From an uncultured candidatus Porisulfidus sp. (lineage in GTDB: Bacteria > Pseudomonadota > Gammaproteobacteria > Poriferisulfidales > Oxydemutatoraceae), in the NCBI GenBank assembly GCA_965215125.1, contig OZ244052.1, forward strand, positions 352,001-416,000: DNA of 64,000 nt. The letters run 5' to 3'. Under the pieces are notes generated by a model. The model saw nothing but the letters and a program-made list of their open reading frames with translations. It was not told the DNA's origin and did not search any database. The position numbers and the translations under genes were made by a program. The first letter of the stretch is position 1; every line of letters starts with the position of its first letter. Positions 1 through 19,200 of the stretch are shown piece by piece.

Positions 1-3000
1 TCTCTTCATAAAACCAACCAAACCACCTACCGATTGTTTCCCTTTAACGAGTACATCGATTAAACCAATTTTTCTAATTTCGGAACTTGTTCCTCCGACA
101 ACACCGAACAGACCGATAGTGTCGCTATTCGCTTTATCTATCATTAAATTGGTAACCGTAAAACCGTTGCCGTCAAAAACCCCGCCTAAGCATGTACTGC
201 TCGCATCGGTACAATCGTTATTAACGATGTTTCCTATAGGTTGCCAACCTGTACCGGTCGTCCACACCGCCTTATTGGATGTTGAGACATAGCTTGCTTC
301 GTCTAGAAAATCTAAATCCTTGACTAATTCATAGCCCAGGCATCGGTTGTCGGGACAACCTGTAGCAATCTTGCTCGCCGTAGAACTCGCACGATAACCG
401 CTACCGTCCGGTTGATAACGAACCGCATTGAGGTCCTCGAGGGTCTCAATTTCTATTAAACCGTCATTATCTTTGTCTTTGTGCGTTGCGATGTCCGCGT
501 ACAACGGTGCATCGTAATGAATGTTTGTCTCATAGCCCTGTACGTCGGTATAGCTTATAGAAAATCTATATTGTGCGTTGCGGGCATCTTCCGGCGGCGT
601 ATAGCTTTTTTGGTTCGCACCGGGGATCGTAATAAATCTACCGTTCTGTTCCCGCAACCATAGATAGCCGACATCGGTCAACAGCCCTCCGTCTATATCG
701 TTTGACAAATCTTCTGCGGAAAGCGTGTCGCTACTTATCCATTTCACGGCACTTGCGGAGTTCCCATTGTTAACCTTTCTTACCGATAGCGGTATCTCTT
801 TGCTTACGACAAACATCGGATTATTGCTTTCGATCAGTTCCAGTTTTAAGATGACCGTGCTATAGTTCTTGTCTCTTGCAACAAAATCGGTAGGCACCGT
901 AAACTCCACGGTAGATGTAGTCTGTATCCCCGACAGTAAAGGTTTCCCCGATGGTTGAGTCCACCGGTAATCCAATCTCCGATTATTCTGTCCCAGACTC
1001 GTTGAAGCATCCAAGCGCAAGACATCCCCTTCGTCTAAAACAAAAATATTCCTTGTGATGAGTTCGGTAGGAGTACTCCCGTTTACTATTTTGAGAATAC
1101 GGGGCTGAAGGAGGTACTTTAAGCGTACCTGTATTTGATAGCTTGCGCCCCTATTACTCCCGCTCAAAGTCTCAACCTTGAGTTTGAACGAATGATTTGC
1201 ATCAATCTGCACGGTGCCGTCAGATTGTCCGGCCAAAGGTGCGCCGTCGTCTTTACGAATTGTTATTACGGTACCTTCGTCGGCACCAGCAGCAATTTTT
1301 ATAATCACCGGTGCCACCTCAACCTCAATCACCGCTTCGTAGTTAAATCTACTCGACTTAAAGCTCGGGGTCAGCTGCACAGCTCTTGAATTGGCAGATA
1401 AGCTCAGTCGATCCAATAAAAGTGCATCGGCAATCTGACCGGACAATAAAGCATTACAACTCGGCAACGCCGTTCCGGGATCGGTATCGCAACCCGGGTC
1501 GGCCGCATCCAATCCGACGCCGTATTTGAGTGCCGGATATTGCTCTGCATTACCGAAGTGCCAATCGGTAGTACTCCAATTCGTATAAGTTCTGCAATTG
1601 CGAATAATACCACTATCTTCTACACATGCCGCATAATTAAAATCCGGCGTTGTAGCGGATTGAAGCCCAAAACTCAACCTTGCACCGGGATGCACCGAAG
1701 TGGGAGCGAAGCTCTTATAACAAAACACTACGGGTATCCTATTATTATCCGAATCGAATATTAAACCATCAGTACAATTCATGCTAAAATTCCAATAACT
1801 ATTGACCGGGTTTGCAATAGAGGTGTCGCCGGCAGGTAATATTCCGGCAACCAAGCCATTGAGTGTGCCGTCACCCGAAACCTCACCTAGAGTATAACTA
1901 TTTTCAATCGTTGAATTATTATTGACACCGACTAAACCACCGGCAACTTTGTTGTTTGAGTTTACGCAGGTGCCGAACCCGGTCTCTGCATTGCCGGTCG
2001 CATAGCTGTTTTTGATTTCGCTCCTTTTCGCTAACTGATTTGAGTTGGTGGAAAACTGATTGCCCACCAAACCACCGACGATGCAAGGTCCTTTTACTTC
2101 ACCGGTCGCATAGCTGTTATATACCTTGCCACCGTCTATGTTCCTACCGACCAAACCGCCCACTCCGACCCGCTTGTTTCCCGTTATTTCGGAATCTTCG
2201 GCAACCACATTGATCTTTGCATAACTATTGAGTATAAAACCTTTATTCCAGCCGACCATCCCGCCTATAAATCCTATACCGTTGCCGAAGCCGACATCAC
2301 CTGTTATTATTTTATCGGTGTTTCCCGCTTCGATATCGCCGACCACATAGCTATTCATGATGACACCGCCGCGTTCCATTCTGCCGGCAATGCCACCTAC
2401 ATTTTTGATCCCGACCAGACCTTTGATCGCCGGATCTACAAGTCTAAAGTTTTTAACCCTTCCGACTGCTCCTATTTGGGAAAACAAACCTATATTGCTT
2501 ATATTGCCGACGCTACGGTTTATTTGCATATTGGATATCGTATAGCCATTGCCGTTAAACACGGCATTAAATGCTCCACCGATAGGCTGCCAACCCAAAT
2601 CGCTTGCATCCCTAAAATCGCTCACCGTCCAACTATTTTTGAGTACCGACGGATTCGGTGTACGATAGCTTGCATCGTCGGTAAAATCTAAATCGTTCAT
2701 CAACTCATAGCCTCGGCATTTTTCTACACCATTTACCAACGGACAACCTGTGGTGATCTTATCCGCACTTTCAGTTGCTTTGTAGCCGCTGCCGTCCGGC
2801 TGATAACGTATCGCATCCAAATCTTCCAAATAACGAATCTCTATCAGACCGTCGCCGTCGTCGTCTATGTCCGAATAGTTTATGACCTCGGATTCAAATT
2901 GCCCGCGATAACCTTGATTGTCTTCATACATAACGAGTACACGATATTGATAATCTCCTTCGTTTGGAAGGGTATAAGTAAGCGTTGCCGTAGACTCTAG

Positions 3001-6000
3001 GTTTATCCAACCCTCCGCCTCGCTACGACGACGCTGCCATTGTATACGGGTTTCGGCAAAGCCACCGTCGCGGTCTATAAACTCGCTACCGTCCATCCTT
3101 TGAAATATAATTCTATAAGTCATTGGTTTATCGCTAACTCTACGCAAGCTAATACGATCGGCAGTGTCGTTGTTTTGCTTGGAAATTATCAATGATATCG
3201 CTCTGCTCATATACACATCGTCCACACCGATTTCCGCCGTCAACTGTACGACACGGCTATCGTCTTGCTTAGACACTACATCGCTAGGTACCGTAAAATC
3301 CAATACGGCACTTTGTGTGTCAACCGGCGATCGCTTATCGTCAAACTTCAGCACATCGCCTGCCGATTGCTGCCATTTGTAGCGATATAAATCTTCATCC
3401 AAAGTAAAATTATACGAAATCATTAGGCGAACACGCTCGCCTTCGGCTACCGACAACGATAGTGGCACCATTGTCGTTGTTGTTGCCGTCACTCGTTCAA
3501 TTTTTAGTTCATCATAACGTACTGAGAAGTGATACGACAATTCGCCGGCATCGGGGTTATGCGTGGTTATAGTAATTTCCGGTGTATGGTTACCGTCCAG
3601 CACGAACGATATCGGAATACCCGACGAACATATCAAACCCTTGCGACAAGCAATATCTATAGTCGTGCCTACCCGTGTCGATGTGGTATCCAATCGTACT
3701 TCGGTTATTCGGGCAGACTCGGCTATGAGCTCGTAGTCAAAAATGAGCGGATGAAAAGACGGGAATAATCGGACATTGTTCGATAGGGTCAAACTTTGCA
3801 ACAGACTTTTCCCTTCGGGAGCAAGTAGCGGCACATCGGCAATCGCTTTCAACTCGGGATAACGATTCGCATCTGCGAACTCCCAAACATCGGCATCCCA
3901 GTTTTTATAAATACTATTTATCGGAGAAGTCGGCGTAGACGATCGGAGTACTGCCGTGGTCGCAGAAGTGCCGCCGGCACTCGATGCGATACCGCTCACC
4001 TCTATATCCCAATAACTATCGTCAACTACCGCATCGTTGACGGCAACCAAGCCACCTACTGTAGATATCTCTCCGATGCCTATCGTTCTGCTTACTGCGT
4101 AGCTATTGATGATTTCGCTGGAACCTTGATTGATAGCAACCAAACCACCGATAGTTCCCCAACCGATTACCGACCCCACCGCATAGCTATTCTCAATACG
4201 ACTGCGATTGTCGTTTAGGGCAACCAAACCACCTGCCAATGACGTTGGCAATCTAGCCGATAGATTGCCTTTCACCTGGGTTTCTGCATAAGATCGAGTA
4301 ATGGAACCGGCAAAATTCCTGCCGACCAATCCCCCTACGATTGCCGATCCACCGCTACCTCTTGCCATCACAGAACCACTAACATAACTCCGGCGAATGT
4401 CGCCCGCTCGGTTAGTGCCGACCAGACTACCGACATGCGCACCTCCGACTATATCTACACCCGTCAAACCGATACCTTCTATTACGACATCGCTTTTGCT
4501 GCCGTCTAGCACACCGAACAGTCCGATATAGTCGCTATCCGGTCTATTCACCGTTAAATTAGAAATCGTATAGCCGTTGCCTTTGAATATTGCCGTGAAC
4601 GGATGTAGCGAGGTGCCTATCGGCTGCCAGCCTGACCCGGTAGTCCAGGCGGTGTTCACGCTCCCCGCTCGGTAATGTGCCGGATTATCAAAGTCCAAAT
4701 CTCGCAACAGCTCATAGCCTTTGCAGCCGGTCATCGGACAACCTTTGGCACTTTCTATCAATACACCATCGGCGTTTTGATATCTCAGATGTCTACCGTC
4801 CAACGCATTGCGTATCGCATCCAAATCTTCCAGTGTTAGAATATCTATCAACCCATCTTTATCGGTATCCACATCCTCTTCAAAACCGGAAGAGAAATAA
4901 TCGACTTCAAAGCGATATCGGATGCGTCGCGCCCCCGAGACTTCAACACTAATCACAGTCGTATCGGTCGAACGCAACACAATTGCCGAACTGGTAGTGC
5001 CGGTTTTGATCGTCTCGTCAAAACCATTATCACTAACGATGCGAATGGTTGCATCCTCATCCAATGCATTCGGTGTCAAATGTAACTGCTTTATGTTTAC
5101 ATCCAACTCTACGCCGAGACGATAATACAATTTAGTCGTATCGAAGTTCGGAGATAGCGTCACAATCTCTGCAATCGTTAAACTTGTCAAACCATAAGAC
5201 TGTAAACCGGCGAGCGTGCTTTCGGTGCTGGTGGTATATTTAAGAATTGGATAACGATTTACATCGCCGAAATGCCAATCGCTATCGTCCCACCGGTAAT
5301 ACGCCCTACCGGCATCCGACGATTGACCGGTGCCCGATTGTAGTTGTACGGTAGTCTTGCCGACACCGCCGGCAGATTCATGTAGGTTGCTCGTAGCGAT
5401 ATCCCAATAGCTATTTACCGCAATACCCCCGACATTGCTACCGATTAGCCCCCCTGTGGCAACCGTATACGAGGTGCATGCAGGCACACCCGTGCATACA
5501 ATATCCGCCGTCGCATAACTGTCGCCAACCGAACCACTGTTCTCACCGATCAAACCACCGATAAGTGCGACTCCTTCGACACCACCGCTTGCATAAGTGT
5601 TTGCAATAGAACCGAGGTTCAAGGCGACCAAACCGCCGATGCCGGTGTCGCCCGATACACGACTCAAGCTGTAGCTGTTTGTAATCACCCCGGTACTTTC
5701 GTTGCGGGCGATCAAACCACCGACCGAGGATCCACCCGATACCGCACCGTAAGCATAACTATTAGAAATACGACCGACATTGTAGGCAACCAAACCTCCG
5801 ACGGCATTTTCTCCGACCACCGTAGCATCGGCAGAGCTGTTGTCTATAATCCCGGCATTATAGGTAGCTAGACTTCCGACACCGAAGCGACCCCCGACCT
5901 CTACATCCGTCAAATTAACATTTTTGACTTGCGCACCGTCGGCTAATGCCGCAAATAGACCGACATTGTCGGTATTGCTCCTATCGATACGTAGATTTGA

Positions 6001-9000
6001 AATGGTATGATTGTTGCCGTCAAATATCGCCGCGAAGCATCGGCTTTGCGTATCGTTGCAATCAAGCGTCGTAGCGTCGATCGCCCCGATCGGATGCCAG
6101 TCAAAACCGGAAAGGTCTATGCTCGCCGCAAGTTCGTAGCCTTTGCAACCGACGGTCGGAGTAGTCGGACACCCCAAGGTGATTTTGGTGTCGTCGCGAC
6201 TCGCTTTATAACCGCTACCGTCCAGTTGATAACGAATCGCATTCAAAGCGTCCGCACTGCGAACCTCTATCAAACCGTCGTCGTCTTCGTCTATATCGTT
6301 GACGGTAATAAAAGAGTGTTTGTTTACCCTAATACTATAAAGCGTCGTTTGCGTAGTTCTAGATACTAAGGGATCCTCCACTGCCAACGTCAGCAAAAGA
6401 TCATTGATATTGTCTATCGTAAGCGTAGTGACTTCACCGCTTCGTAATTCCATACGCGGGTTCGTTTCGCTATCGTTGTTGAGCGTAAGCACCGAACCCG
6501 AATTAAATGTATACGGAATGATGCTGAACTCACGCGCATCGCTTTTTAATATCAACTCGTAATCGTATATCTTGGAATTAAAGTCGGGTCTTAATAGTAA
6601 AACCTGACCGGTTCGATTTGAGTGCGCTAAATTGCTCAAACCGGTGCGACGTTGCGCCGGCAACAAGGTTCCACACATCGGCAGTTCGGTATCGGCATTT
6701 TCGGCTTCTAGGCACGCCGGGCGAGTGATTATATCGGTAGCACTGGTATATCTTAATACCGGATATTGACCGGACTCGGAATACCAATCGTTGCTATCCC
6801 AGTTGCTATAGATCCCATCTCCGATCGCAGCTGTTCGAAGCTCTGTTGTCGTCTTGCCGATACCGGTAACATCATCCTCGTCGTCTGCCACCCCGCTCGT
6901 AACAACATCCCAATAACTCGCATCGGCACTGCCAAGCGAAGTTCGACCCAATAATCCACCGATAAGCCTTCTGCTCGTCACCTTGCCGATCGCATAGCTA
7001 TTACTCACCACGATCCCCGATTGTGATAGCTCACCTACCAAGCCACCGACAAAGTCACTTCCGATAACCGCACCGCTCGCATAACTATTGTGAATATCCC
7101 TAGTCGAAATACCGACTAAACCACCTACAAAGTCATTCCCGACAACCGCACCGCTTGCATAACTATTATGAATTTTTCCACCTATTGCATTAGAACCGAC
7201 TAAACCGCCGGTAATGGCAAAGCGTCCATTTACCGAAACATCTGCATAGCTATTGACGATCGTGCCACCGTCATTCCTACCGACCAAACCTCCTACATAG
7301 AGATGGCCTTGAACATCACCGCCGATCACATAGCTGTTGACGATTTCACCTAAATTAAGACCTACCAAAGTACCGATACTATAGAGATCATGCCGGCTCA
7401 TATCAATATCCACATTGAGTAGACCGATATGCTCAATTCTCGCACCGCTCGCCAGCACACCGAATAAACCGATATCGCCGATAGGTATACCCTGAATCCT
7501 CAAGTTTGATATCGTATGTGCATTTCCGTTGAATAAACCGCTAAAAGGATTGCGACGGTTTCCTATCGGTTGCCAACCCGCACCGGTCGTCCATATCGGG
7601 TTGATCACACCCGCACGATAACTCGTAGGATTCTTAAAATCTAAATCTCTAGCCAATTTATAACCCTTACACCGCCTCGCACCGTCCTCGGTGTCTATAG
7701 GGCAATCCTTCAAGGTGGCGGATACCTGCGCCAAAGCGTAACGCATCAGGTTCAAGTCCTCTAGATAATCAATCGTTATGAAGTCATCGACTACTGCGAT
7801 ATCTTGCAATACCTTAATCGTATAGAATGTCGGCATGCCTTGTGTTGCGGATTGAACCCTAAGCACAATACTATCTAAATCGTCGCTTAGAGTAAACAAT
7901 GAACTTTGCCCGCTACGCTTTGATGAACTCAAGCTACCTGCGTCTACGGTGATCGTATCGGTGCCGTAATAAGCGGTCGGTGTGATACGAACCTCGTCGC
8001 CCGAACCAACGACTAAATGATAGTCGTATATCTCAAGATTAAATGCCGGAAGCAAGCGTGCATTTTTTGAAAGCTCCATTTGAACCAACCCGGCACGTTG
8101 TTCGGGTAGCAAGGCTCCGCAATACGGTTGTTGTTTCGGCAATCTCGGTAAATGACTAAGACAAACAATCGTCTTGTCATGCTCCGACAGGTCTGCAAAC
8201 AATCCACCATTACAATCCGATAATTGCTGCGGCAACGGTTGTCTGCATGCCGTATTGTCGTCATCGCCTGTTGCATAAAGCAACGCCGGATATTGATCTA
8301 CATTACCGAAGTGCCAATCGGCTCTATTCCACCCGGTATAAATATCATCCGACGGCATACCCGACTTCAGTGCTACCGCAGTTTTATCGGTGCCGATCAG
8401 TGAATCGATTCCAGAGATAACTGCACCTGCTCTATAATAACTATTAACAATTGTATGTCCGAGGACGGTTGCCGCAACTAAACCTCCGGTAATTCCATTA
8501 CTTGCCTGCACATCACCGATTGCATAGCTATTGTGAATTCTTGCATGATTATTACCGGCCAAACCGCCTGCACGCCCATTATTTGCCCGCACACCACCGA
8601 CTGCATAGCTATTAACAATAGAACCACCTATTTCATTCCAACCGACCAAACCGCCGGCGCGATCATTATCCACTTGTACGTCAACACGCGCATAGCTATT
8701 AACGATCATGCCGTCATTATTTCTACCGACCAAACCACCACCGTCGTTAACCTCGGCTAAGAGCTTACCCTCTGCATAGCTATTGATAATCGTGCCGAAG
8801 TTATAGCCGGCGATGCTACCGACATTACTCTGTCCGGCGATACTCACATTCACCAGACCGACATTCTCAACCCTGCCACCGGCTCCGATCGCTCCGAATA
8901 AACCTACCTCATTGGTACTGCCCGCCTTTATGGTCAAATTGGATATCGTGTAGCCGTTGCCTTTGAATACACCGCTAAAAGGTTCACTCAAACTACCTAT

Positions 9001-12000
9001 GGGTTGCCACTCAATCCCGGCAAGGTCTATATCTGCGGTCAATTCATATCCCATGCAGCCGTTGGAACAATAGATCGCATCGGTGGTTTCGCTTTGTTGA
9101 TAGGCACCGCCGTCCAAGCGATGGCGGACGGCATTCAAATGTGTCGCATTACTAATCTCTATGAACCCATCGCCGTCTTCGTCTATGCTTTGAGCGACGA
9201 TGTCGAGTCGATTGATGACGAATTGATATCGATACGAATGTCGTTTGCCGTCTTTTACGACCAAACTAAAAACCGTATCGCCGGTGTCGTTCAACGGTAT
9301 CGGCACCGTCCATTCACCGCTATCGGTTTCTCCTATTGAGGTGCCATCCTTAAAAACTTCAATCGTTGCTACTGCATTAAACGCAGTCGGTAACATGCGA
9401 ATAGTACTGCGATCGGCATTGACCGATACACCGTAATCAAATGATGTAAATGCAAAAGGACTGGATAAACCTGCGCCTTCGGATAATTTTAGGTCTCGCA
9501 ATAGGCTCCCTTGATGACGAAGCAAGGTGTGGCATGCATCGGGACGTCTCTGAATATCCGCTGTATCACAATGTGCATCACCATCGGTAGAGTCGGCACG
9601 CAAATTATACCTAATCGCCGGATATTGCTCATTGGTGCCGAAATCCCAGTTATCGCTACCCCAGCTCGTATAAATGCCGGTTGCACTCGTCGGTGATTGA
9701 AGTTCGGCGGCACGCTTACTCTCTCCCAAAGTCACATTGGTTTCGGCGATGTCTTCGTCTAAATAAATTGCCTTCGCAGTCAGTGCACGCTGATCGCTCG
9801 GATCTCTATTGCCACCGAATAAGCCCTGAGGCACATCGGCTTTGGTTGCCGAAACGCTCGCATAGCTATTGACGATATCAATGGCAGACGATGTGCGCAC
9901 GCCTATTAAACCGCCTATAAACGCGTCATCGTGTTCTGCGGTAATCGTGCCGACTACATAGCTGTCGGTGATGGTTAGAGCGGAATCTACATCGCCGACC
10001 AAACCGCCGGCAACCGCCGATCGACCGTTGACGGTAATATTACCGATGAAATAACTATTGCTAATTCGGGCACGCCCACCACCCGTTGCCGAAATAGCAT
10101 TTACCAAACCGGCAGCGGCGGCGGTTCCTTGTATATCTCCTATCACATAACTATTGCTTATCGTACACCGCTTACACGATGTGGCAATTCCGGCAACCAC
10201 ATCCCCTTTAATATCCATAGCCGACAATCCAATGCCGTCTATATAGGCAACACGACTATCGCTACCTATCGTTGCAAAAAGACCTCCGTTTGTCCCCACT
10301 CTTAAATTGGCAATCGTTTTATTATTGCCCTTGAATGTGCCGGTGAAAGTTGCTTCGTCTAATCCGATCGGTTGCCAGGCACCCACACCCGTCCATCGTC
10401 CCATATTCTTCTCGGCATTGCGATAACTACCGGCATCGTTAAAATCCAAATCTCTTAACAATTCATAACCACGACATCCCGCACTCGGACAACCCGAGGT
10501 AATCTTGATGGACTCGTCATCCGCTCTATAGCCGCTACCGTCCAACTGATAGCGGATCGCATCCAAATCTTCCAGATAATCGATATCGACGAGACCGTCG
10601 CCGTCTTCGTCTATGACCCTATGAGGCGCATAACTCAGATAAAGCGTATACCTAACCGTCTGTGTGCCTTTTACTTCAACGACAACTTTTTTTATCCCGT
10701 CATTTTTCAACGAAATCGGAGCACTTGTATCGTGACTATCTACCATTTCTCGTCTATCTCCCATAAAACTAATATGCGCAGTTGATTCCATTGCCACCGG
10801 TATCAAGCGTATACTCGGATGTTCTCCGATCACCGTGCCTGAGTAAACGCCGCTTTGGTTGAGCCTCTCAATATCAAGCGGTGGATAGAATGTAACATCG
10901 TTTGCTGACGTTAAATCACGCAAACCATAGCGCAAACCCGGCGATATTAGATCTCCACATTGCGGCAACCCCGATGAACCACACTCAAAAACATTTTCGG
11001 TTGCAGTGGTATATTTAAGTATCGGGTATTGTTTCGATGTTCCGAAATCCCAATCGTCGGTATTCCAATCTTTATAAATGCTATTCGCCGGCATCGTCGG
11101 GGTCTGCGATTGAAGCCGTTTCGTGATTTGCCCGATGCCGTTGCTTCCTTGTACAGTACTGATGTCGCTGTTCCAATAGCTTGCGATTATCTTGACAGCA
11201 CCCGAAGTAGCACCGACCAACCCCCCTATGCTCTGATTATCCCCGTTTGTTCCACTTACTTGACTAATCGTATAACTGTTTTCAATGGTACTGCCCTCCA
11301 GGAAACCAACCAAGCCCCCCGCATTTCTACCTCGAACTCTAACCGCTGCATAGCTGTTAATAATTTTTGCCTGCGGCTCGTTCCAGCCGACCAGTCCACC
11401 TGCGTGACTTCCGCCGGCGACTATAGAGACTTTACCGGTTGCATAACTATTAGTGACTAGGTCCCGATTAACACTCACTAAGCCACCAAAACCTAAGCCG
11501 CCCGAACTCGGTATTACGATACTATCGGCATGACTATTGATAATCCTGCCATCGTTATCTCCAACGAGACCGCCGAGCGATGAAGTTCCGGACACCTCGG
11601 CTATTGCATAACTGCCGATAACCTCTCCGCCGTCGTTACTCGCAACCAAACCACCGCCCACACCCTCAATACTTTTTGATACAACACTGCCGCTGACATA
11701 GCTATAGCCGACTTGCCCTCGGTTAGTGCCGATTAGTCCGGCAACTTTAGCTCCACCTTCTACTTTCACATTCAACAAACCGATATTGCTTATCAGTGCA
11801 TCGGATGTGCTAGCTCCGAATAAACTTTGATTGTCAACATCGTCTCTATTTATCTGCAAACCTGATATCGTATAACCGTTGCCGTCAAAGCGACCGGCAA
11901 AAGGCTTTGGTTCGCTGCCTATAGGTGCCCAACCGACATCGGTGGCATCCTGGTAATCATCTACCGTCCAAAAAATCCTATTCAACGGCTCCAGATAACT

Positions 12001-15000
12001 CTCACTATCTGCAAAATCCAAGTCTCTAGTTAACTTATAAGAACCCGTCGGTCGATCTCGTATCGCATCTAAGTCTTCTAGGTAGTTAATCGGTGTGATC
12101 CTATCGTCGGCAATACTCTGATAACCGATATACAGCGCATAGCGTACGGTTACAGTTCCTTGCACTTCAATGTGAATACGTGTCATACCGGTTGCACTCA
12201 AAGAGATTGCTTTACTCGTCTCACCGCTTCGGATATTATCGTACGCGGTGTTGTCGTCGCCGATATAGAAACGAATGTACGCAATTGGTTCTATCGCCGT
12301 CGGAATCAACCGAATCGCATTATCGGTACTGCGCAGACTGCCGATATAAATACCGCTTCGGTTTTGTGCCTCTATATCAAACTCGGGAGATAAAACAACA
12401 CTGTCCGCCGTCGCCAAACTACGCAAACCATAACGCAAGCGCGGCGATATCAACTCGCCGCATTGCGGCAATCCCGACACACCGCAGGCATCGCCGTCGG
12501 GTCCCGGTGCATATTTGAGTATCGGATACTGCTCGCTGTTGCCGAAATCCCAATCGGCATCGTCCCATTCTTCGTATATCCCGATTGACGCAGTGGGCAG
12601 TTGCATTTGTCGCGTACTCTGTCCGCTCCCGTGACCATTTTGTACACCTCCAATCTCAACATTCCAATAACTCGCAACGATAACTCCGTCATTGGCACTG
12701 GCTAAACCACCTCCGCCACCTTGCACTTTAGCAATAGCATAACTGTTGGTAATCATTGCCGCTGATATTTGATTAGTACCGACCAAGCCGGCTACACTAC
12801 TATTTCCGGAAACTTCGCCGTTTGCATAGCTGTTGGTTATAGACCCTCGGTTGATACCGGTTAAACCCCCTACGAACAGATCCCCTCCCACATCACCGCC
12901 GGCATAGCTATTAATCACGCGTGCGTTGATAGCATTCCAACCTATAAGACCCCCCACATTGTCGGATCGTCTTTCCAATATCCGAACCGTTGCATGACTA
13001 TTGATTACTATACCCTCATTGGTGCCGACTAAACCGCCCAGATGGCTCGAAACCGAACTTTGCATCGAAATATCCGAGCCGGCATAGCTATTGATGATTT
13101 TACCGTTGTTCACTCCGACAATGCCACCTACTAAACTATTTGCCGAAAACTCCCCGACCGCATAACTGCCGACGATAGTACCGGCATTAACACCCACCAG
13201 ACCACCGATATGTTCCTTTCCTTCTATTCTTACATTAGGCAAGCCTATATTTCTTATGCTAGCCGCAGATCCCAAAGCACCGAATAAACCTTGATAGTCG
13301 GCATCATCTCTATTTATCTGCAAATTAAATATCGTATGACCATCACCGTTAAAAATGCCTGTGAAACGACCTGCAAGCGTGCCTATAGGCAACCAGCCGG
13401 TGTCCGCATCGTTGCCGTAATCGGCAACCGTCCATTTTGTTTTATTGATCGGGTCGCGGTAGCTCGCATCCGAGTTGAAATCCAAATCTCGCGCTAATTC
13501 GTATCGACCGTCTAATTGATTGCGTATCGCATTCAAATCTTCTAAGTAGTAAATATCTCTAAAACCGTCATCCTCTACGACCTTCACCACCGATACCGGC
13601 TCGGATACGACACGATGATCATAACCTTGATTGTCGCGATAATCCAACCATACACGATAGCCGATATTATCGATTGCCGACAACACCGTGGGTATTTGAT
13701 AGCGTATTTGTATCGCATCTTTGATATCTTGCCATGTTGCCAAATCGGACGATAGTTTGTACTGCCATTGATAACCAAAGCTGTTAATATCTGCACCACC
13801 GTCGGGATCTACAGATAAATCGGCTTCGCCGATATCCGACACCGTTAATATCCCCTCGCGATAGGTCGGGGCAGCTAAAGTCCTCATGCTACCGCCATTT
13901 GTTTTGACAACCGTCATCGTCGTACTTCGGGTTACGGTTGTCCGACCGTCGCGCACTTCCACTTGCAGCACAACGGGGGCCTCGTCGGCATCTTGAACTA
14001 CAAAATCGTCGGGTATGTTTATGTTCAACTCGGCTAGGCCGGTGTCCGAGTCTTTTAATAAATCGGGTTGCATCGGCGAAACCTGACTCCAGCGATAACG
14101 TACTCGTCGTAAATTCGGCTCGGAGGTTGAAACACTCAACATAATATTTTGTCCTTCGCTCACCCTATGATCCGAACGATTACTACTAATCGTTGCTTGC
14201 AAGCCGGATCGACGTATCACCCAAATCCGATAGTGCCTCGCTATCGTCACTAAGGTAGGTTCGGGGGCTACATTCAAAATAATCGGTGCCGTCTCGCCGT
14301 TATTCACCGAAGACAAACCGATTTTCTCGTCTTTAAGAATACTAATCGTCTGCGTGCTATTTGCTATCGTAGGGCTGAACCTTATCTCTGTTACACTATC
14401 GTCGCTTAAGTTCACACGATAATCAAAGGTCTGCGGATTAAACGCAGGAGATAAAGTCAAACCGTCTAATACAAGCAAACTCGAGAGCATGATGTGCTGA
14501 CCCGACAATAGGTGTCCCTTTTCAGAACCCTCGCTATGTCTGAGTATCGGGTATTGTTCGCCGGTGCCGAACTCCCAATCGGCAACATCCCATCGTTCAA
14601 AGGTCTCGCCCGGTAGACCGGGGGCAGTCGGTGATTTTAGCTGTGCGGTAGTTCGCAAACTACCACCGGCACTGAACGATATCCCGGTAGCCTCGCTATT
14701 CCAATAGCTGTGTATTACACGCACCATGTCGGCATGCCTCGTTTGGTGTGCATAATTCCAGCCGACTAAACCACCCGCATGCTCACCGCTTGCGACAACC
14801 TGCCCGTTTGCAAAACTGTCGGAGACGATGCCTTTATTACTGCCGACCAAACCACCGACTCTATGCACACCACCTACATAACCGCTTGAGTACGTATTGC
14901 TTATTCGACCACCCTCGTTCCAACCGACCAAACCGCCCACATCGCTATCGCCGTCTATGCGACCCTGCGCAAAACTATTGGTGATTTCACTATCCCTGTT

Positions 15001-16026
15001 CCAACCGACCAGACCCCCCGTATAAAGATTACCCACAACCGCACCACTTGCCCGACTATCGGCAATTTTGCCGCCACGGTCATTCGCACCGACCAACCCA
15101 CCGCTATACGAACCGTCGCTTATTACTTTGCCTTCGGCATGGCTCGCACTAATCCGAGCACGATTGAGACCGACCAACCCACCGATATAATCGCGTCCTC
15201 TTGCAGTCCCGTCGGCACGACTGTTTGTCAGCGCACCTCGAGAGTTAAGACCGACCAAACCGCCGACTTGGTTGACACCGGATACACTCGTATCGGCAAT
15301 GCTATACCTAATATGCCCTTCGTTATGACCCACCAGACCGCCGAGACTATGACCGCCACCCTCTACACGCTCAAGTATGACATCGCCGTTGAGTATCGTC
15401 CCGGCATTGGCACCGAACAAACCGCCGACAGTGTTGCCCACACCGATTAGACGGCCCCCTTCCACACCGATATAAGAAACACCCCCGGCGTTATGACCGG
15501 CTAAACTACCGATGTACGAATTCCCTGTGATGTTTATTTGCGACAATACCAAATCGCTGATTTTGGCCGGCTTAGTCGTCACCTTGAATAAACCGACATA
15601 ATCCGACGGCCTGTTGATGTACAGGTTGGCTATCGTATGACCATTGCCTTCAAACCTTGCGCTAAAGAAACTCAGCCGATCGCCTATAGGCAACCAACCT
15701 AAACCACTCGTCCATGCTTCTTTGTTGATGATGTTGCGGTAGTCATCGGAAACATTGAAGTCTAGATCGTCTCGCAACTCGTAGCCGTTGCAACCGCTTT
15801 GCGGACACCCCGCAGTGATCTTGACTGCGTCAAAACTTTCTCTATAGCCGGTGCCGTCAAGCTGATAGCGAACTGCATTCAATGCATCCAAATCGCATAG
15901 CTCTATCAAGCCATCGTTGTCTTGATCTATATCACTTAGGTAATTGCATTGAAAACCATCTTGCGCCGATACGGATCGCAACAATACCATGGTTAACGGT
16001 AATAAGAGTCTTGCGGATCCCCCCAT
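1..16026 (-). CDS. Gene A: giant secreted GLUG-repeat / cadherin-like beta-sandwich surface protein, 3'-truncated by window edge (>5342 aa)
   Basis: Not in the ORF track because there is no stop in the window. Manual translation from ATG at 16026 gives MGGSARLLLPLTMVLLRSVSAQDGFQCNYLSDIDQDNDGLIELCDLDAL. The same frame at 120..1 reads TIGLFGVVGGTSSEIRKIGLIDVLVKGKQSVGGLVGFMKR. The gene is collinear with B, C and D. The track lists no long stop-terminated minus ORF here, consistent with one uninterrupted frame. Confidence 0.9.
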   Translation of the reverse strand, partial: MGGSARLLLPLTMVLLRSVSAQDGFQCNYLSDIDQDNDGLIELCDLDALNAVRYQLDGTGYRESFDAVKITAGCPQSGCNGYELRDDLDFNVSDDYRNIINKEAWTSGLGWLPIGDRLSFFSARFEGNGHTIANLYINRPSDYVGLFKVTTKPAKISDLVLSQINITGNSYIGSLAGHNAGGVSYIGVEGGRLIGVGNTVGGLFGANAGTILNGDVILERVEGGGHSLGGLVGHNEGHIRYSIADTSVSGVNQVGGLVGLNSRGALTNSRADGTARGRDYIGGLVGLNRARISASHAEGKVISDGSYSGGLVGANDRGGKIADSRASGAVVGNLYTGGLVGWNRDSEITNSFAQGRIDGDSDVGGLVGWNEGGRISNTYSSGYVGGVHRVGGLVGSNKGIVSDSFANGQVVASGEHAGGLVGWNYAHQTRHADMVRVIHSYWNSEATGISFSAGGSLRTTAQLKSPTAPGLPGETFERWDVADWEFGTGEQYPILRHSEGSEKGHLLSGQHIMLSSLLVLDGLTLSPAFNPQTFDYRVNLSDDSVTEIRFSPTIANSTQTISILKDEKIGLSSVNNGETAPIILNVAPEPTLVTIARHYRIWVIRRSGLQATISSNRSDHRVSEGQNIMLSVSTSEPNLRRVRYRWSQVSPMQPDLLKDSDTGLAELNINIPDDFVVQDADEAPVVLQVEVRDGRTTVTRSTTMTVVKTNGGSMRTLAAPTYREGILTVSDIGEADLSVDPDGGADINSFGYQWQYKLSSDLATWQDIKDAIQIRYQIPTVLSAIDNIGYRVWLDYRDNQGYDHRVVSEPVSVVKVVEDDGFRDIYYLEDLNAIRNQLDGRYELARDLDFNSDASYRDPINKTKWTVADYGNDADTGWLPIGTLAGRFTGIFNGDGHTIFNLQINRDDADYQGLFGALGSAASIRNIGLPNVRIEGKEHIGGLVGVNAGTIVGSYAVGEFSANSLVGGIVGVNNGKIINSYAGSDISMQSSVSSHLGGLVGTNEGIVINSHATVRILERRSDNVGGLIGWNAINARVINSYAGGDVGGDLFVGGLTGINRGSITNSYANGEVSGNSSVAGLVGTNQISAAMITNSYAIAKVQGGGGGLASANDGVIVASYWNVEIGGVQNGHGSGQSTRQMQLPTASIGIYEEWDDADWDFGNSEQYPILKYAPGPDGDACGVSGLPQCGELISPRLRYGLRSLATADSVVLSPEFDIEAQNRSGIYIGSLRSTDNAIRLIPTAIEPIAYIRFYIGDDNTAYDNIRSGETSKAISLSATGMTRIHIEVQGTVTVRYALYIGYQSIADDRITPINYLEDLDAIRDRPTGSYKLTRDLDFADSESYLEPLNRIFWTVDDYQDATDVGWAPIGSEPKPFAGRFDGNGYTISGLQINRDDVDNQSLFGASTSDALISNIGLLNVKVEGGAKVAGLIGTNRGQVGYSYVSGSVVSKSIEGVGGGLVASNDGGEVIGSYAIAEVSGTSSLGGLVGDNDGRIINSHADSIVIPSSGGLGFGGLVSVNRDLVTNSYATGKVSIVAGGSHAGGLVGWNEPQAKIINSYAAVRVRGRNAGGLVGFLEGSTIENSYTISQVSGTNGDNQSIGGLVGATSGAVKIIASYWNSDISTVQGSNGIGQITKRLQSQTPTMPANSIYKDWNTDDWDFGTSKQYPILKYTTATENVFECGSSGLPQCGDLISPGLRYGLRDLTSANDVTFYPPLDIERLNQSGVYSGTVIGEHPSIRLIPVAMESTAHISFMGDRREMVDSHDTSAPISLKNDGIKKVVVEVKGTQTVRYTLYLSYAPHRVIDEDGDGLVDIDYLEDLDAIRYQLDGSGYRADDESIKITSGCPSAGCRGYELLRDLDFNDAGSYRNAEKNMGRWTGVGAWQPIGLDEATFTGTFKGNNKTIANLRVGTNGGLFATIGSDSRVAYIDGIGLSAMDIKGDVVAGIATSCKRCTISNSYVIGDIQGTAAAAGLVNAISATGGGRARISNSYFIGNITVNGRSAVAGGLVGDVDSALTITDSYVVGTITAEHDDAFIGGLIGVRTSSAIDIVNSYASVSATKADVPQGLFGGNRDPSDQRALTAKAIYLDEDIAETNVTLGESKRAAELQSPTSATGIYTSWGSDNWDFGTNEQYPAIRYNLRADSTDGDAHCDTADIQRRPDACHTLLRHQGSLLRDLKLSEGAGLSSPFAFTSFDYGVSVNADRSTIRMLPTAFNAVATIEVFKDGTSIGETDSGEWTVPIPLNDTGDTVFSLVVKDGKRHSYRYQFVINRLDIVAQSIDEDGDGFIEISNATHLNAVRHRLDGGAYQQSETTDAIYCSNGCMGYELTADIDLAGIEWQPIGSLSEPFSGVFKGNGYTISNLTIKAGSTNEVGLFGAIGAGGRVENVGLVNVSIAGQSNVGSIAGYNFGTIINSYAEGKLLAEVNDGGGLVGRNNDGMIVNSYARVDVQVDNDRAGGLVGWNEIGGSIVNSYAVGGVRANNGRAGGLAGNNHARIHNSYAIGDVQASNGITGGLVAATVLGHTIVNSYYRAGAVISGIDSLIGTDKTAVALKSGMPSDDIYTGWNRADWHFGNVDQYPALLYATGDDDNTACRQPLPQQLSDCNGGLFADLSEHDKTIVCLSHLPRLPKQQPYCGALLPEQRAGLVQMELSKNARLLPAFNLEIYDYHLVVGSGDEVRITPTAYYGTDTITVDAGSLSSSKRSGQSSLFTLSDDLDSIVLRVQSATQGMPTFYTIKVLQDIAVVDDFITIDYLEDLNLMRYALAQVSATLKDCPIDTEDGARRCKGYKLARDLDFKNPTSYRAGVINPIWTTGAGWQPIGNRRNPFSGLFNGNAHTISNLRIQGIPIGDIGLFGVLASGARIEHIGLLNVDIDMSRHDLYSIGTLVGLNLGEIVNSYVIGGDVQGHLYVGGLVGRNDGGTIVNSYADVSVNGRFAITGGLVGSNAIGGKIHNSYASGAVVGNDFVGGLVGISTRDIHNSYASGAVIGSDFVGGLVGELSQSGIVVSNSYAIGKVTSRRLIGGLLGRTSLGSADASYWDVVTSGVADDEDDVTGIGKTTTELRTAAIGDGIYSNWDSNDWYSESGQYPVLRYTSATDIITRPACLEAENADTELPMCGTLLPAQRRTGLSNLAHSNRTGQVLLLRPDFNSKIYDYELILKSDAREFSIIPYTFNSGSVLTLNNDSETNPRMELRSGEVTTLTIDNINDLLLTLAVEDPLVSRTTQTTLYSIRVNKHSFITVNDIDEDDDGLIEVRSADALNAIRYQLDGSGYKASRDDTKITLGCPTTPTVGCKGYELAASIDLSGFDWHPIGAIDATTLDCNDTQSRCFAAIFDGNNHTISNLRIDRSNTDNVGLFAALADGAQVKNVNLTDVEVGGRFGVGSLATYNAGIIDNSSADATVVGENAVGGLVAYNVGRISNSYAYGAVSGGSSVGGLIARNESTGVITNSYSLSRVSGDTGIGGLVALNLGSIANTYASGGVEGVALIGGLIGENSGSVGDSYATADIVCTGVPACTSYTVATGGLIGSNVGGIAVNSYWDIATSNLHESAGGVGKTTVQLQSGTGQSSDAGRAYYRWDDSDWHFGDVNRYPILKYTTSTESTLAGLQSYGLTSLTIAEIVTLSPNFDTTKLYYRLGVELDVNIKQLHLTPNALDEDATIRIVSDNGFDETIKTGTTSSAIVLRSTDTTVISVEVSGARRIRYRFEVDYFSSGFEEDVDTDKDGLIDILTLEDLDAIRNALDGRHLRYQNADGVLIESAKGCPMTGCKGYELLRDLDFDNPAHYRAGSVNTAWTTGSGWQPIGTSLHPFTAIFKGNGYTISNLTVNRPDSDYIGLFGVLDGSKSDVVIEGIGLTGVDIVGGAHVGSLVGTNRAGDIRRSYVSGSVMARGSGGSAIVGGLVGRNFAGSITRSYAETQVKGNLSARLPTSLAGGLVALNDNRSRIENSYAVGSVIGWGTIGGLVAINQGSSEIINSYAVSRTIGIGEISTVGGLVAVNDAVVDDSYWDIEVSGIASSAGGTSATTAVLRSSTPTSPINSIYKNWDADVWEFADANRYPELKAIADVPLLAPEGKSLLQSLTLSNNVRLFPSFHPLIFDYELIAESARITEVRLDTTSTRVGTTIDIACRKGLICSSGIPISFVLDGNHTPEITITTHNPDAGELSYHFSVRYDELKIERVTATTTTMVPLSLSVAEGERVRLMISYNFTLDEDLYRYKWQQSAGDVLKFDDKRSPVDTQSAVLDFTVPSDVVSKQDDSRVVQLTAEIGVDDVYMSRAISLIISKQNNDTADRISLRRVSDKPMTYRIIFQRMDGSEFIDRDGGFAETRIQWQRRRSEAEGWINLESTATLTYTLPNEGDYQYRVLVMYEDNQGYRGQFESEVINYSDIDDDGDGLIEIRYLEDLDAIRYQPDGSGYKATESADKITTGCPLVNGVEKCRGYELMNDLDFTDDASYRTPNPSVLKNSWTVSDFRDASDLGWQPIGGAFNAVFNGNGYTISNMQINRSVGNISNIGLFSQIGAVGRVKNFRLVDPAIKGLVGIKNVGGIAGRMERGGVIMNSYVVGDIEAGNTDKIITGDVGFGNGIGFIGGMVGWNKGFILNSYAKINVVAEDSEITGNKRVGVGGLVGRNIDGGKVYNSYATGEVKGPCIVGGLVGNQFSTNSNQLAKRSEIKNSYATGNAETGFGTCVNSNNKVAGGLVGVNNNSTIENSYTLGEVSGDGTLNGLVAGILPAGDTSIANPVNSYWNFSMNCTDGLIFDSDNNRIPVVFCYKSFAPTSVHPGARLSFGLQSATTPDFNYAACVEDSGIIRNCRTYTNWSTTDWHFGNAEQYPALKYGVGLDAADPGCDTDPGTALPSCNALLSGQIADALLLDRLSLSANSRAVQLTPSFKSSRFNYEAVIEVEVAPVIIKIAAGADEGTVITIRKDDGAPLAGQSDGTVQIDANHSFKLKVETLSGSNRGASYQIQVRLKYLLQPRILKIVNGSTPTELITRNIFVLDEGDVLRLDASTSLGQNNRRLDYRWTQPSGKPLLSGIQTTSTVEFTVPTDFVARDKNYSTVILKLELIESNNPMFVVSKEIPLSVRKVNNGNSASAVKWISSDTLSAEDLSNDIDGGLLTDVGYLWLREQNGRFITIPGANQKSYTPPEDARNAQYRFSISYTDVQGYETNIHYDAPLYADIATHKDKDNDGLIEIETLEDLNAVRYQPDGSGYRASSTASKIATGCPDNRCLGYELVKDLDFLDEASYVSTSNKAVWTTGTGWQPIGNIVNNDCTDASSTCLGGVFDGNGFTVTNLMIDKANSDTIGLFGVVGGTSSEIRKIGLIDVLVKGKQSVGGLVGFMKR
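7045..7175 (-). repeat. 78-bp (one GLUG coil) tandem duplication in module 6 of gene A; same in gene D at ~61100-61230
   Basis: IHNSYASGAV(V/I)G(N/S)DFVGGLVG occurs twice, 26 aa apart. In D, acaaagtca is at 61104 and 61182. Confidence 0.8.
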
Positions 16027-16035
16027 ACTACGCTT

Positions 16036-16042
16036 CCCCCCT
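16036..16042 (-). promoter_or_regulatory. Ribosome binding site of gene A (AGGGGGG, 9 nt spacer)
   Basis: Minus strand reads tAGGGGGGaagcgtagtATG. Confidence 0.55.
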
Positions 16043-16117
16043 ACATAGCATATTCCCAATTAGCTCATAAATAACTTGCATTTTTATTCAAGCTATTTAT
16101 CGCTATAAAACAGTTTT

Positions 16118-16126
16118 ATTATAGCA
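16118..16126 (-). promoter_or_regulatory. Extended -10 sigma70-type promoter for gene A (TGCTATAAT)
   Basis: Reverse complement of attatagca is a perfect TGnTATAAT, ~92 nt upstream of the ATG. No convincing -35. Confidence 0.65.
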
Positions 16127-16138
16127 TATCAAACTGTT

Positions 16139-16166
16139 GAGAAAAGAACCGCCGTTTGTTGCGGTC
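16139..16166 (-). terminator. Possible weak intrinsic terminator after gene B
   Basis: 30 nt after the TGA: GACCGC-aacaaacg-GCGGTT followed by CTTTTCTC. Confidence 0.4.
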
Positions 16167-16195: not shown

Positions 16196-16240
16196 TCAGC
16201 GCAAAAAGCCTTCGGGAAATACTCTGATGTTTACGAAAAT
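16196..16240 (-). other. Conserved C-terminal peptide IFVNIRVFPEG(F/L)LR* (also 34339-34383 and 52382-52426)
   Basis: Same 14-aa end in B, C and D (one F/L change). It follows a more variable S/T/R-rich linker (SINRSTV / STDRSTG / SVVRSTD). Confidence 0.85.
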
Positions 16241-19200
16241 AACCGTTGACCGATTGATTGAAGTTCTTACAACACCCCTAGATCTCACGACATTATATAT
16301 GAATTGCTGCGGTGCCGACATCGCCGGAGATGCTAATCCTCGATGCCTATAACCCTGCTTATCGGTATAATCAATCAATACACGATAGCGATTACCTATA
16401 ATGCCTTCTACGGTATGGCTTTGATCGGTGGCACCATCAATATCCAACCAGCTACCCAGCAGTTCCTTTTGCCATCGATAAGCGATCTCGGGGGTAGGAT
16501 TTGTTCCATCCGAATCCGACGATAGATCTATGCCTGCTATGGTATACCTAAAACCATTCAGCGTAGGCGCAGGAACCGATATAACACCGTTATTCTTTTT
16601 GATTATCGTTAACCGCACCGTTTCACCGGCAACGCCTAAGCCATCGTCAACCGTCAAAACGATATCCACAACATCTGTGTTTTGCATTTCATCAAGCAAG
16701 TCGTTTGGTATGTCATGCTCATACCTTAAATCGGCACGACCTACTACCGTGCCGGTGCTTCTTTCTATATCCGATAATAGGTTCGGAATCATACTTAGAC
16801 TATAACTCAACTCGTCCCCTTCGGGATCTGCTATAGCGGTATTTAATGCAAAGGTTTCACCCTCTACGATTGAAGCAGGTGCGTTAATACTTATCCTCGG
16901 CAAACGATTATTATTTATCGTCAATTTATAGACAACGGGGGCTTCCATTCCCGCCGCATTACTCGTCGCAACACGAATAACCGTAGAGGTAGGCTCGGAA
17001 GTATTGAGCGAGACAGAATAACCGGTATCGTTCGTCGGCAGGACTCTGTCGTCGGCTATGATACTCGCATCGGGATTAGCGGCTATCGGGGTGACTCTTA
17101 GTTCGCTCGCATCGGCATGAACCGACACCGTATAAGTCGTAACCGCAGGATCAAAGTCGGGGGAGAGATACAAATGCCCTGCGCCCACATTTTGTTCCAA
17201 CTTTAGAGCTCGCAAACCGATACGCTGGTGGGGTAACAATCTACCGCAATCCGGCGACGGCGTCGAAGTGCCACAGGTGTTATCGTGGTATTTGAGCACC
17301 GGATACTCATCGGCAGTGCCGAAATCCCAATCATCGGTATCCCAAGTGTAATAAATATCGTTTACCATTGTCCCCGGTGCAGTCGGCATTTGCAATTCGG
17401 CCTTAGTCTTAGCGGTGCCGCCTCCCGGAGAGTTCGTCTGCCCACTTGCATCGGTATCCCAATAGCTATTAGCCACGACTAGTCCGGGTGATTGCCTTAT
17501 GCCGATTAAACCACCTACATACTGTTCATCGGTGTTGGCTGTCGCAACAAAAGTTGTTTTTACCTCGACAGTCGAGTAGCTGTTGACGACACTACCGCGC
17601 CCCCATAAGGTGCCGACTAGACCTCCCACAGCTCGTTTTTTCTCACTGATGCTAACCGAGCCTGCTACATAGCTATTACCGATAAGCCCTCGATTCTCAC
17701 CCACTAGACCCCCTGCACCCCGCTCTGCCGAAACATCGGCAACCGCATAGCTACCGATGATAATACCACCATGGTTTATGCCACAGATGCCACCGACAAA
17801 ACGAGAACCTAAGACGGTGCCACTGACATAACTATTGATAATCGACGAACCCGATACACTGACACCGGTTAACAGACCGATAACATTATTTTGCCCTTCA
17901 ACCCTGCCTTCGACTACATAGATACTCATTAGTTCGCCCTCGTTGCGACCGACTAGACCACCGACCCCAGCATTACCTTTTACTTCTATTGCCGATAATC
18001 GGAGATTGCGAATGGTGCCGGTATTTCCGGCAAACAGACCTATTTCATCGGTGGTGTCTCTATTGATCTGCAAATTGGTAATCCTATATCCGTTGCCGTC
18101 AAAAATACCGGCGAAACAGTCACTACCCGCATCACTACAATTATTGTTAGCAACAATACCGATCGGTTGCCAGCCTGTGCCGGTCGTCCAAGCCACTTTA
18201 TTGGCAGTTGAATTATAGCTGGCATCGTCCAGAAAATCTAAATCCTTGACTAATTCATAGCCTCGGCACTTCTCTACACCGTTGACCAAAGGACAACCTG
18301 TAGTCATCATAATTGTCGTAGAACTTGCACGATAACCTCTGCCGTCCGGTTGATAACGAATCGCATTGAGATCTTCGACGGTTTCAATTTCTATTAAACC
18401 GTCGTTATCCTTGTCTACAAAGTTTGCAATCGTTGTAAATTGCGGTGCGTCGTAGTGAATGTTCGTTCGGTAACCCTGTCCATCGATATAGCTTATAGAG
18501 ACTCTATATTGTGCATTGCGGGCACTTCTGGGAACTATATAGCTTTTTTGGTTCGCACCGGGTATCGCAACAAATCTACCGTTCCGTTCCCGCAACCATC
18601 GATAGCCGATATCGGTCAACGACCCTCCGTCTATATCGTTTGACAAATCCTCCGCGGAGAGCGTGTCGCTACTTATCCATTTCACGGCACTTGCGGAGTT
18701 CCCGTTATTAACCTTCCTCACCAACAACGGTACTTCTCTACTTACTACGGATGCCGAATTATTGCTTTCGCTCAACTTCAGTTTTAAGACGACCGTGCTA
18801 TCGTCCTCGTCTCTTGCGACAAAATCGGTAGGTACCGTAAACTCTACGGTAGATGCAGTTCTTATCCCCGACAGTAACGATTTCCCCGATAGTTGAGTCC
18901 ACTGGTAATCCAACTGTGAATTTTTCTGTACGATACTCATTGATGCATCCAAGCGAAAGACATCTCCTTCGTCTAAAACAAAAATGTTTCTTGCGATTAG
19001 TTCGGTAGGAGTACTCCCGTTTACTATTTTCATAATACGAGCCTTAAGTGGGTACTTTAAGCGCACCTGTATTTGATAGCTTGCGCCCCTATTACTCTCC
19101 CTCAAAGTCTCAACTTTGAGTTTGAATGAGTCCTCTGCACTAATCTGCACGGTACCGTCCGATTGTCCGGTCAAAGGTGATCCATTGTCTTTACGAATCG

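Follow-up and report, generated by a model that had tools for sequence, protein, structure and literature searches.

Giant tandem GLUG genes of an uncultured Porisulfidus bacterium form a mosaic consistent with repeated interlocus gene conversion

Intact paralogous surface-protein genes that undergo ectopic gene conversion are known from bacteria, among them the opa genes of Neisseria and the bab/sab genes of Helicobacter. Here, we analyzed a comparable family in a stretch of 64,000 nucleotides (nt) from an uncultured candidatus Porisulfidus species (contig OZ244052.1, positions 352,001 to 416,000; hereafter the window), the whole of which is occupied by four collinear paralogous open reading frames (ORFs) on the minus strand, genes A to D. 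As with opa and bab/sab, short segments appear to have been exchanged in register among full-length paralogues and in all directions, with both homogenization and mosaics as the outcome. The genes described here differ in being approximately 18 kb long, at least 10 times longer, and in carrying approximately 17 variable cassettes each. In addition, they come not from a pathogen but from a bacterium that is marine and uncultured, a relative of a genus associated with sponges.

Other systems of surface variation share some of these features. In the account given in PMC4534519, junction identity in pilE is 1–34 bp, and recombinant segments of vlsE measure 1–423 bp. The array resembles pilE/pilS, vlsE, and msp2, as treated in that source, in its mosaic tracts of a few to several hundred nt and in its very short junction identity (median of 8 nt here). 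In contrast to those systems, it lacks both silent cassettes, whether promoterless or truncated, and a single site of expression, and exchange is multidirectional. The same account describes Ehrlichia p28/map-1 and Mycoplasma gallisepticum vlhA as tandem full-length genes with their own promoters, which vary mainly by which copy is expressed. The array likewise consists of tandem intact genes with short spacers (136–304 nt) and a promoter-like element each; however, the evidence here is of sequence exchange. Among eukaryotes, PMC3512402 and PMC2440560 describe ectopic recombination that yields chimeric cell-surface alleles of yeast FLO genes and block mosaics in Plasmodium var genes, respectively. 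The array shares with FLO and var the chimeric alleles of cell-surface paralogues and a network of shared polymorphic blocks, but those families are eukaryotic and partly subtelomeric, whereas this one is a single bacterial tandem array.

Porisulfidus itself is used as an outgroup of SUP05 in PMC9123188. The genus is also named in the abstract of a sponge genome note and reported from sponge metagenomes. Literature searches on Porisulfidus, sponge symbionts, giant adhesins, cadherins, GLUG motifs, and concerted evolution of giant surface proteins returned nothing on this gene family.

Mosaic structure of gene A and its paralogues

The window covers part of a tandem array whose intact genes measure ~17.8 kb each. 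The four genes are as follows (lengths of the encoded proteins in amino acids, aa):

1–16026, minus strand: gene A (protein P0018, 5970 aa in full); ORF 1–16059 with an ATG at 16026; truncated at the 3′ end, where the window starts
16196–34009, minus strand: gene B (P0001, 5937 aa when translated from an ATG at 34009); ORF open from a TTG at 34039
34339–52077, minus strand: gene C (P0002, 5912 aa)
52382–64000, minus strand: gene D (P0003, 5898 aa in full); 5′ end cut by the window end

The ORFs of B and C are complete, and those of A and D run open up to the window edges. The intergenic spacers measure 136, 299, and 304 nt. GC content is 45–51% across the window, with negative GC skew all along. 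In BLASTN comparisons, A to D are collinear at 83–89% identity on long diagonal high-scoring segment pairs (HSPs). Off-register similarity in the window reaches only 67–79%, with the exception of one 173-nt segment that is shifted by 300 nt and 88% identical (A–C and B–C). A protein search detected a fifth paralogue outside the window, P0010 (5758 aa; hereafter E). The contig carrying the window proteins is 2,220,706 bp long, and E is encoded on a contig of equal length, so that it presumably belongs to the same genome as the window genes. The five genes make up ~4% of 2.22 Mb.

A preliminary description of this DNA, based on comparison by eye, had portrayed gene A as a patchwork of B-, C-, and D-type tracts with more than 15 switches between them. 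We scored the tracts of A on a codon alignment and traced its nearest copy along a Viterbi path. The copy named in the preliminary description was the best partner among B, C, and D in all 17 labeled tracts, including 13460–12735 (98.2% to B, 56.5% to C), 11570–11030 (97.2% to C, 65.8% to B), 10980–10640 (99.7% to B), and 1800–1340 (98.0% to D, 60.9% to B, 52.2% to C). The number of switches proved larger than the minimum first proposed. The Viterbi path has 54 segments (median 189 nt, range 7–1678 nt), and 36 of its 52 scorable junctions have at least 8 supporting sites on each side. Tracts of A at 97–100% identity span 36 to 1678 nt, and the eleven at ≥97% sum to 5,746 nt. Tracts that illustrate the pattern are listed below, with synonymous divergence (dS) for three of them:

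12737–13476, minus strand: B-type tract, 98.5% identical to B and 75.5% to C; dS 0.02 to B and 0.67 to C
11032–11572, minus strand: C-type tract, 97.2% to C and 66.7% to B; dS 0.06 versus 1.22
10639–11031, minus strand: B-type tract, 99.0% to B; contains a 308-nt run over 62 sites
8933–9654, minus strand: tract near-identical in A, B, and C (A–C 99.0%, A–B 96.7%), with D apart at 88.5%
6727–8341, minus strand: D-type tract, 98.1% to the non-adjacent D, 81% to B, and 76% to C
5312–5814, minus strand: B-type tract, 99.0% to B
1356–1806, minus strand: D-type tract, 98.2% to D, 64% to B, and 58% to C; dS 0.04 versus 0.83 and 0.99

The tract at 12737–13476 holds a 362-nt run in which A equals B over 81 polymorphic sites. 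Within 6727–8341, A and D are identical for 505 nt (A 7447–6943 and D 61502–60998) over 214 polymorphic sites.

Permutation tests supported the tract structure. The shuffles permuted the order of the informative sites and kept the variable positions, so rate heterogeneity was controlled. Where D is missing from the comparison, the 971 informative sites among A, B, and C (AB 438, AC 312, BC 221) switched affiliation 233 times, compared with 623 ± 14 times after shuffling, and none of 2000 shuffles was as low. In the region with all four genes, 615 parsimony-informative sites (AB|CD 203, AC|BD 95, AD|BC 317) switched 131 times, compared with 370 ± 11 (again 0 of 2000 shuffles as low). Informative sites therefore lie in tracts rather than being randomly interleaved, and when only runs of at least 5 consecutive sites were counted, 23 + 6 switches (at least 29) were still present. 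In a GENECONV-like test, the longest identical runs exceeded all 1000 permutations in six of six gene pairs (AD 214, AB 81, CD 58, BC 51, AC 48, and BD 30 polymorphic sites). By a maximum-descent statistic similar to that of 3SEQ, each of the 15 child/parent triplets was significantly recombinant, and none of 1000 permutations attained the observed value.

Synonymous sites follow the same pattern. The dS of recent tracts was 0.00–0.06 to the local partner, compared with 0.3–2.3 to the other copies; this sharing of the tract pattern by synonymous sites indicates that the tracts stem from a common ancestor rather than from convergence or selection. In 279 pairwise windows of 300 nt, dS spread continuously from <0.02 to >0.8, which points to exchange events of many ages. 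The 84 mismatches inside recent tracts (66 transitions and 18 transversions, with all four bases involved) have an ordinary spectrum.

Mosaicism is not confined to A or to the window. In a five-protein alignment, every copy is a mosaic, with 83, 87, 67, 67, and 99 segments; A is not a special recipient, and reticulation extends through the entire family of at least five genes. Over 1380 residues of A, the closest copy is E; these residues include parts that look like orphans within the window, for example A ~4200–3820. A thus combines tracts of B-, C-, D-, and E-like type, and B, C, and D are not the full donor pool, as P0010 contributes too. Seventeen variable cassettes account for 1,535 of the 6,143 protein columns (approximately a quarter) and occur as 2–5 types among the five copies. 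Their groupings differ from cassette to cassette (for example, ABD/C/E, AC/B/D/E, AB/CD/E, AD/BC/E, and AD/B/CE).

The patchwork of A had also been argued from shadow ORFs on the opposite strand. As proposed, the four pairs (11029/47254, 13291/31277, 1540/55628, and 4677/22600) are exactly in register, with an offset of 0 in each, but they are only antisense by-products of the same similarity. Plus-strand antisense ORFs of 91 aa recur in register at 16530/34673/52716, 17943/36077/54120, and 4677/22600. These are by-products of the repeated coding sequence and no evidence of genes.

Concerted evolution and the origin of the mosaic

We compared the family with a foreign set of the 20 closest full-length homologues, drawn from 120 listed protein matches and 2 others; proteins at greater distance, P0008, P0024, and P0025 among them, were not included. 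In a tree of N-terminal alignment columns 100–600, from which P0014 was excluded as too gappy, A to E form one clade with a support of 100 in the Shimodaira-Hasegawa-like approximate likelihood ratio test (SH-aLRT). In a tree of variable columns 3000–3250, A groups with D (100), B with foreign P0006, P0007, and P0022 (98), and C and E with foreign P0005 and P0020 (96). This split of A to E into three lineages, two of which include foreign proteins, indicates that the paralogues predate the split of the genomes and that their N-terminal sameness reflects later homogenization. Consistent with this, of 65 windows of 100 aa, the best in-genome partner beat the best of the 20 foreign proteins in 57 for A, 50 for B, 49 for C, 58 for D, and 35 for E. 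The clustering of paralogues by genome in some segments despite an older duplication is, judged from these alignments, concerted evolution by repeated ectopic gene conversion. A scan of a genome collection yielded one related locus, L001, from the metagenome-assembled genome (MAG) of a relative. Its best segment has 68% aa identity, and there, too, at least three genes of this type are arranged in tandem.

The analysis shows the mosaic with its statistical support, the sharing of the pattern at synonymous sites, the incongruence of trees, and the homogenization in comparison with other genomes. We consider it likely that these features result from repeated in-register ectopic recombination, that is, interlocus gene conversion, among the tandem giant genes. 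Copies would swap tens to ~1,700 nt by homologous in-register recombination, in all directions and including non-adjacent copies. One effect would be to homogenize the conserved parts within the genome (concerted evolution). The other would be to reshuffle the ~17 hypervariable cassettes, each with 2–5 deeply diverged types, into new combinations, so that every copy would come to be a mosaic of others. The mechanism is of a known kind, gene conversion in a surface-protein family; the setting and the scale are new.

Several points weigh against gene conversion among the array genes as a full account. First, 4305 of 16473 columns of A (26%) have no partner at ≥88% among B to D. A search of the window for off-register donors to 31 orphan stretches of A returned only chance hits of 20–25 nt or matches of 68–82%. 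The C-terminal part of A, which lies mostly past the window start, is only 21–54% identical to the other copies. Second, the paralogues within L001 are 50–91% identical per 300-nt window and include no near-identical tracts, indicating that exchange is not equally active in relatives. Third, some cassette types are nearer to foreign genomes than to any copy here, such as C to P0014 at 93%, which also allows import from other strains. Fourth, a patchy consensus or faulty polishing across paralogues could give rise to patches like the shortest tracts (7–50 nt). The exchanges are presumed to be non-reciprocal and RecA-dependent.

The junctions, which were read from the assembled sequence, add a further difficulty. 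The preliminary description had proposed to test whether breakpoints fall in blocks identical across all copies, as expected of a RecA-type process, or share a short motif, as expected of a site-specific one. The 36 strong junctions showed no preference for long blocks of shared identity, with a median identity interval of 8 nt (range 0–127), compared with a null median of 11.5 nt (5–95% interval 6–20; P of null ≥ observed, 0.87). The simple RecA prediction of junctions in long shared identity was accordingly not borne out. No block identical in all copies exceeds 93 nt. The junctions may, however, be blurred by layered events and by donors outside the sample. The search for a motif was negative too: the top 5-, 6-, and 7-mer counts at the junctions (7, 4, and 2) were below the mean maxima of the null (8.8, 5.4, and 3.8), and this lack of a shared k-mer gives no sign of a site-specific mechanism.

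An alternative is that the copies are recent duplicates whose divergent cassettes came in from other strains or species, as foreign DNA incorporated through homologous recombination (allelic exchange or lateral transfer). In keeping with this, cassette types are common to several genomes. In columns 1000–1100 of the family alignment, C is 93% identical to foreign P0014 and only 69% to any in-genome copy, and both B and C+E group with foreign proteins in the variable-segment tree. However, in 47 of 65 windows the best foreign partner of B comes from a single orthologue group, and in 35 of 65 that of E is P0020 or P0005. Orthologues recognizable along most of the length of B and E indicate that these loci are old and not recent duplicates. 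Furthermore, the closest partner of a tract is usually an in-genome paralogue, at 97–100% nt identity and dS near 0, whereas the best of the 20 foreign proteins is typically at 70–90%. We therefore regard import as an improbable source of the mosaic.

Errors of assembly or polishing, in which reads of paralogues were mixed in the consensus of a repeat-rich region and left false patches, are also a poor fit. The nearest relative in the genome collection is a MAG, so the source of the window may be one too, and many of the segments are very short, with a minimum of 7 nt and a median of 189 nt. Nevertheless, the main tracts swap whole cassettes that are 35–60% diverged from the alternatives, as where A equals D over 214 polymorphic sites, and reads so different would not mis-map. 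The tracts also carry their own scattered mismatches, a normal transition bias, and a continuum of dS, which fits a real history. Related proteins in independent assemblies have the same layout of conserved and variable cassettes, and the 2.22-Mb contig suggests long-read assembly. An artifact of this kind is accordingly very improbable.

Direct repeats of 18 kb in tandem lend themselves well to unequal crossing-over, and A and B have an upstream spacer and signal peptide in common. It is nonetheless hardly credible that the mosaic arose while the array was growing, from a single unequal crossover or a few, or from chimeric duplications, that left hybrid genes without later conversion. A single crossover leaves one junction, and A alone has 36 strong ones. 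The at least 29 relationship switches (in runs of at least 5 sites) and the widely differing ages of the tracts argue in the same direction. As the preliminary description had contended, repeated gene conversion is favored over one unequal crossover by these 36 junctions, the tracts of 36–1678 nt at 97–100%, the dS contrast, and the exchange with non-adjacent D.

Programmed diversification, whether by silent-cassette antigenic variation, a site-specific shufflon, or a diversity-generating retroelement, would be suggested by the fine mosaic and very short junction identity, which resemble pilE/pilS and vlsE as described in PMC4534519. This explanation is extremely unlikely: all four copies are intact ORFs (B and C complete, A and D open to the window edges, with database proteins of 5,898–5,970 aa), a −10-like element lies upstream of A, B, and C, no k-mer is common to the 36 junctions, genes and tracts are all collinear and in the same orientation, and every copy is similarly mosaic (67–99 segments; 15 of 15 triplets) instead of receiving one-way into a single recipient. 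Full-length intact copies with their own start and −10-like element mean that neither silent donors nor a single expression site exist. Two specific mechanisms were considered and rejected. A shufflon or invertase is at odds with the lack of any enriched 5- to 7-mer at the 36 junctions and of any inversion among genes or tracts. A diversity-generating retroelement is at odds with mismatches that are not adenine-specific, and the window has no room for a reverse transcriptase gene. No recombinase or reverse transcriptase gene is present in the window, which the four genes fill.

Predicted products, spacers, and layout of the array

Pfam searches with four quarters of B detected Glug (PF07581) in all four, at 59.8–133 bits (cut-off 20.5). 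Two Cadherin-like β-sandwich domains (PF12733) scored 45.6 and 41.2 bits (cut-off 24.2), and weak Peptidase_M26_N matches scored 28.0 and 26.1 bits against a cut-off of 27.7. No peptidase catalytic domain was detected by Pfam in any part of B. Self-BLASTP of B gave no off-diagonal HSPs and was uninformative on module periodicity, which was instead taken from motif spacing: GLUG-like rungs with a period of ~27 aa fall in about ten clusters along the protein. Each protein of ~5,900 aa is composed of approximately ten modules of a GLUG β-solenoid and a cadherin-like β-sandwich. Some of the variable cassettes sit in the solenoid rungs themselves.

A structure model of B residues 2850–3250, built from a 30-sequence alignment, was of moderate quality (predicted local distance difference test score, 64.5) and comprises a β-solenoid, a poorly predicted linker, and a β-sandwich. 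Its best folds in the PDB were IgA1 proteases and a Bacteroides "putative IgA1 protease" (E values of 5.8e-4 to 5e-3, template modeling scores of 0.33–0.45). The likeness to M26 IgA1 proteases of Streptococcus and Gemella (PDB 7uvk and 6xja; also 3n6z) lies in the N-terminal β-helix region, with Glug and weak Peptidase_M26_N. In contrast to those enzymes, the proteins here have no catalytic domain, and the module is repeated approximately 10 times and paired with cadherin-like sandwiches. An identity as M26 IgA1-specific metalloproteases was rejected, as only the N-terminal-region model matched, at or below the cut-off, and no catalytic family did. Three further searches gave little: a PDB sequence search with the first 5,000 of the 5,947 residues of B returned 0 matches, NCBIfam searches with the 1000 aa at either terminus of B returned sub-threshold fragments only, and a cluster look-up of 9 homologues returned no names.

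Type I-secreted RTX giant adhesins have C-terminal RTX repeats and a secretion signal but no N-terminal signal peptide. The N-termini of the array proteins, judged by eye, look like Sec signal peptides. An assignment to the RTX adhesins of the SiiE, LapA, or MpIBP type was rejected, given this Sec-like N-terminus and the lack of any RTX family in the Pfam and NCBIfam scans of B. The products are most likely surface or secreted adhesion proteins.

All of the genes in the window whose upstream spacer is covered have a promoter-like element, identified by pattern match:

16118–16126, minus strand: extended −10-like element TGCTATAAT upstream of A
34099–34107, minus strand: extended −10-like element TGTTATAAT upstream of B
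52242–52250, minus strand: extended −10-like element TGCTATAAT upstream of C

The element TGNTATAAT (TGnTATAAT) occurs 3 times in the 64 kb, always on the minus strand and once per intergenic spacer (3 of 3). Three occurrences are no more than chance would give; what is striking is where they lie, which suggests a putative extended −10 promoter for each giant gene. A scan of the three spacers for two-hexamer Sigma-70 promoters found nothing above chance on the gene strand. The array genes are presumably expressed. The spacers upstream of A and B are homologous, and that of C is largely different. A terminator-like hairpin with a T-run lies at 16147–16166 (minus strand), in the 136-nt spacer between the B stop and the A start, and none was found in the other two spacers. 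A search of the whole window against Rfam at the gathering threshold gave 0 matches.

Several features of individual copies were also recorded. The 3′ part of A escapes homogenization: window positions 1–342 are 68–69% identical at the nt level to B, C, and D. In the adjoining part of P0018 (residues ~5400–5970), aa identity is 21–54% just past the window and 67–80% over the last ~350 aa, compared with 88–100% among B to E over those last ~350 aa. This divergence could be an edge-of-array effect. Gene C contains 162 nt (41881–42042) that are missing from A, B, and D and that overlap a tandem repeat (41669–42003; period 78 nt, 4.2 copies) corresponding to 26-aa solenoid rungs. The overlap of this extra sequence with the tandem repeat indicates that the number of rungs varies as well, probably through slippage or unequal exchange. 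At 49167–49192, C is without 171 nt (33 + 138) of A 12958–13152 and B 30944–31138; this gap falls in a cassette in which A equals B and C is ~44–63% identical.

Copies B, C, and D all end in a common short motif, RVF(P/L)EG(L/F)LR followed by the stop (16196–16260, 34339–34400, and 52382–52440), which is also found in the genes of the relative (L001 3560–3593 and 21750–21782). The motif had no match in any family searched and could be an unrecognized sorting or anchoring signal. At least three more distant giant GLUG proteins outside the window, P0025 (6243 aa), P0080 (3542 aa), and P0095 (5388 aa), lie on a contig of equal length to that of the window's genome. Together with A to E, they bring giant GLUG genes to well over 4% of the ~2.2-Mb genome.

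Biological meaning of the array

The array is an unusually clean natural case of interlocus gene conversion, with long collinear substrates, dozens of datable tracts, and exchange between non-adjacent copies. Homogenization and diversification can be seen side by side in one array. Arrays of this kind can easily mislead assembly and annotation, and they are well suited to testing methods that detect recombination.

The GLUG and cadherin-like products are plausible host-contact proteins. Tentatively, the array might serve as a standing combinatorial library: at least five intact giant β-solenoid genes with their own promoters, in which ~17 cassettes of 2–5 ancient types, some of them trans-specific, are re-dealt by micro- to kilobase conversion, the types being kept by selection from an animal host (recognition or phagocytosis evasion). 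We offer this as a possible reading, with some doubt. If it is true, the array would be a bacterial counterpart of var-like mosaic families without silent cassettes, taking up ~4% of a 2.2-Mb genome. If cassette shuffling is under selection, the array would represent variable surface recognition in an animal-microbe association outside the pathogens.

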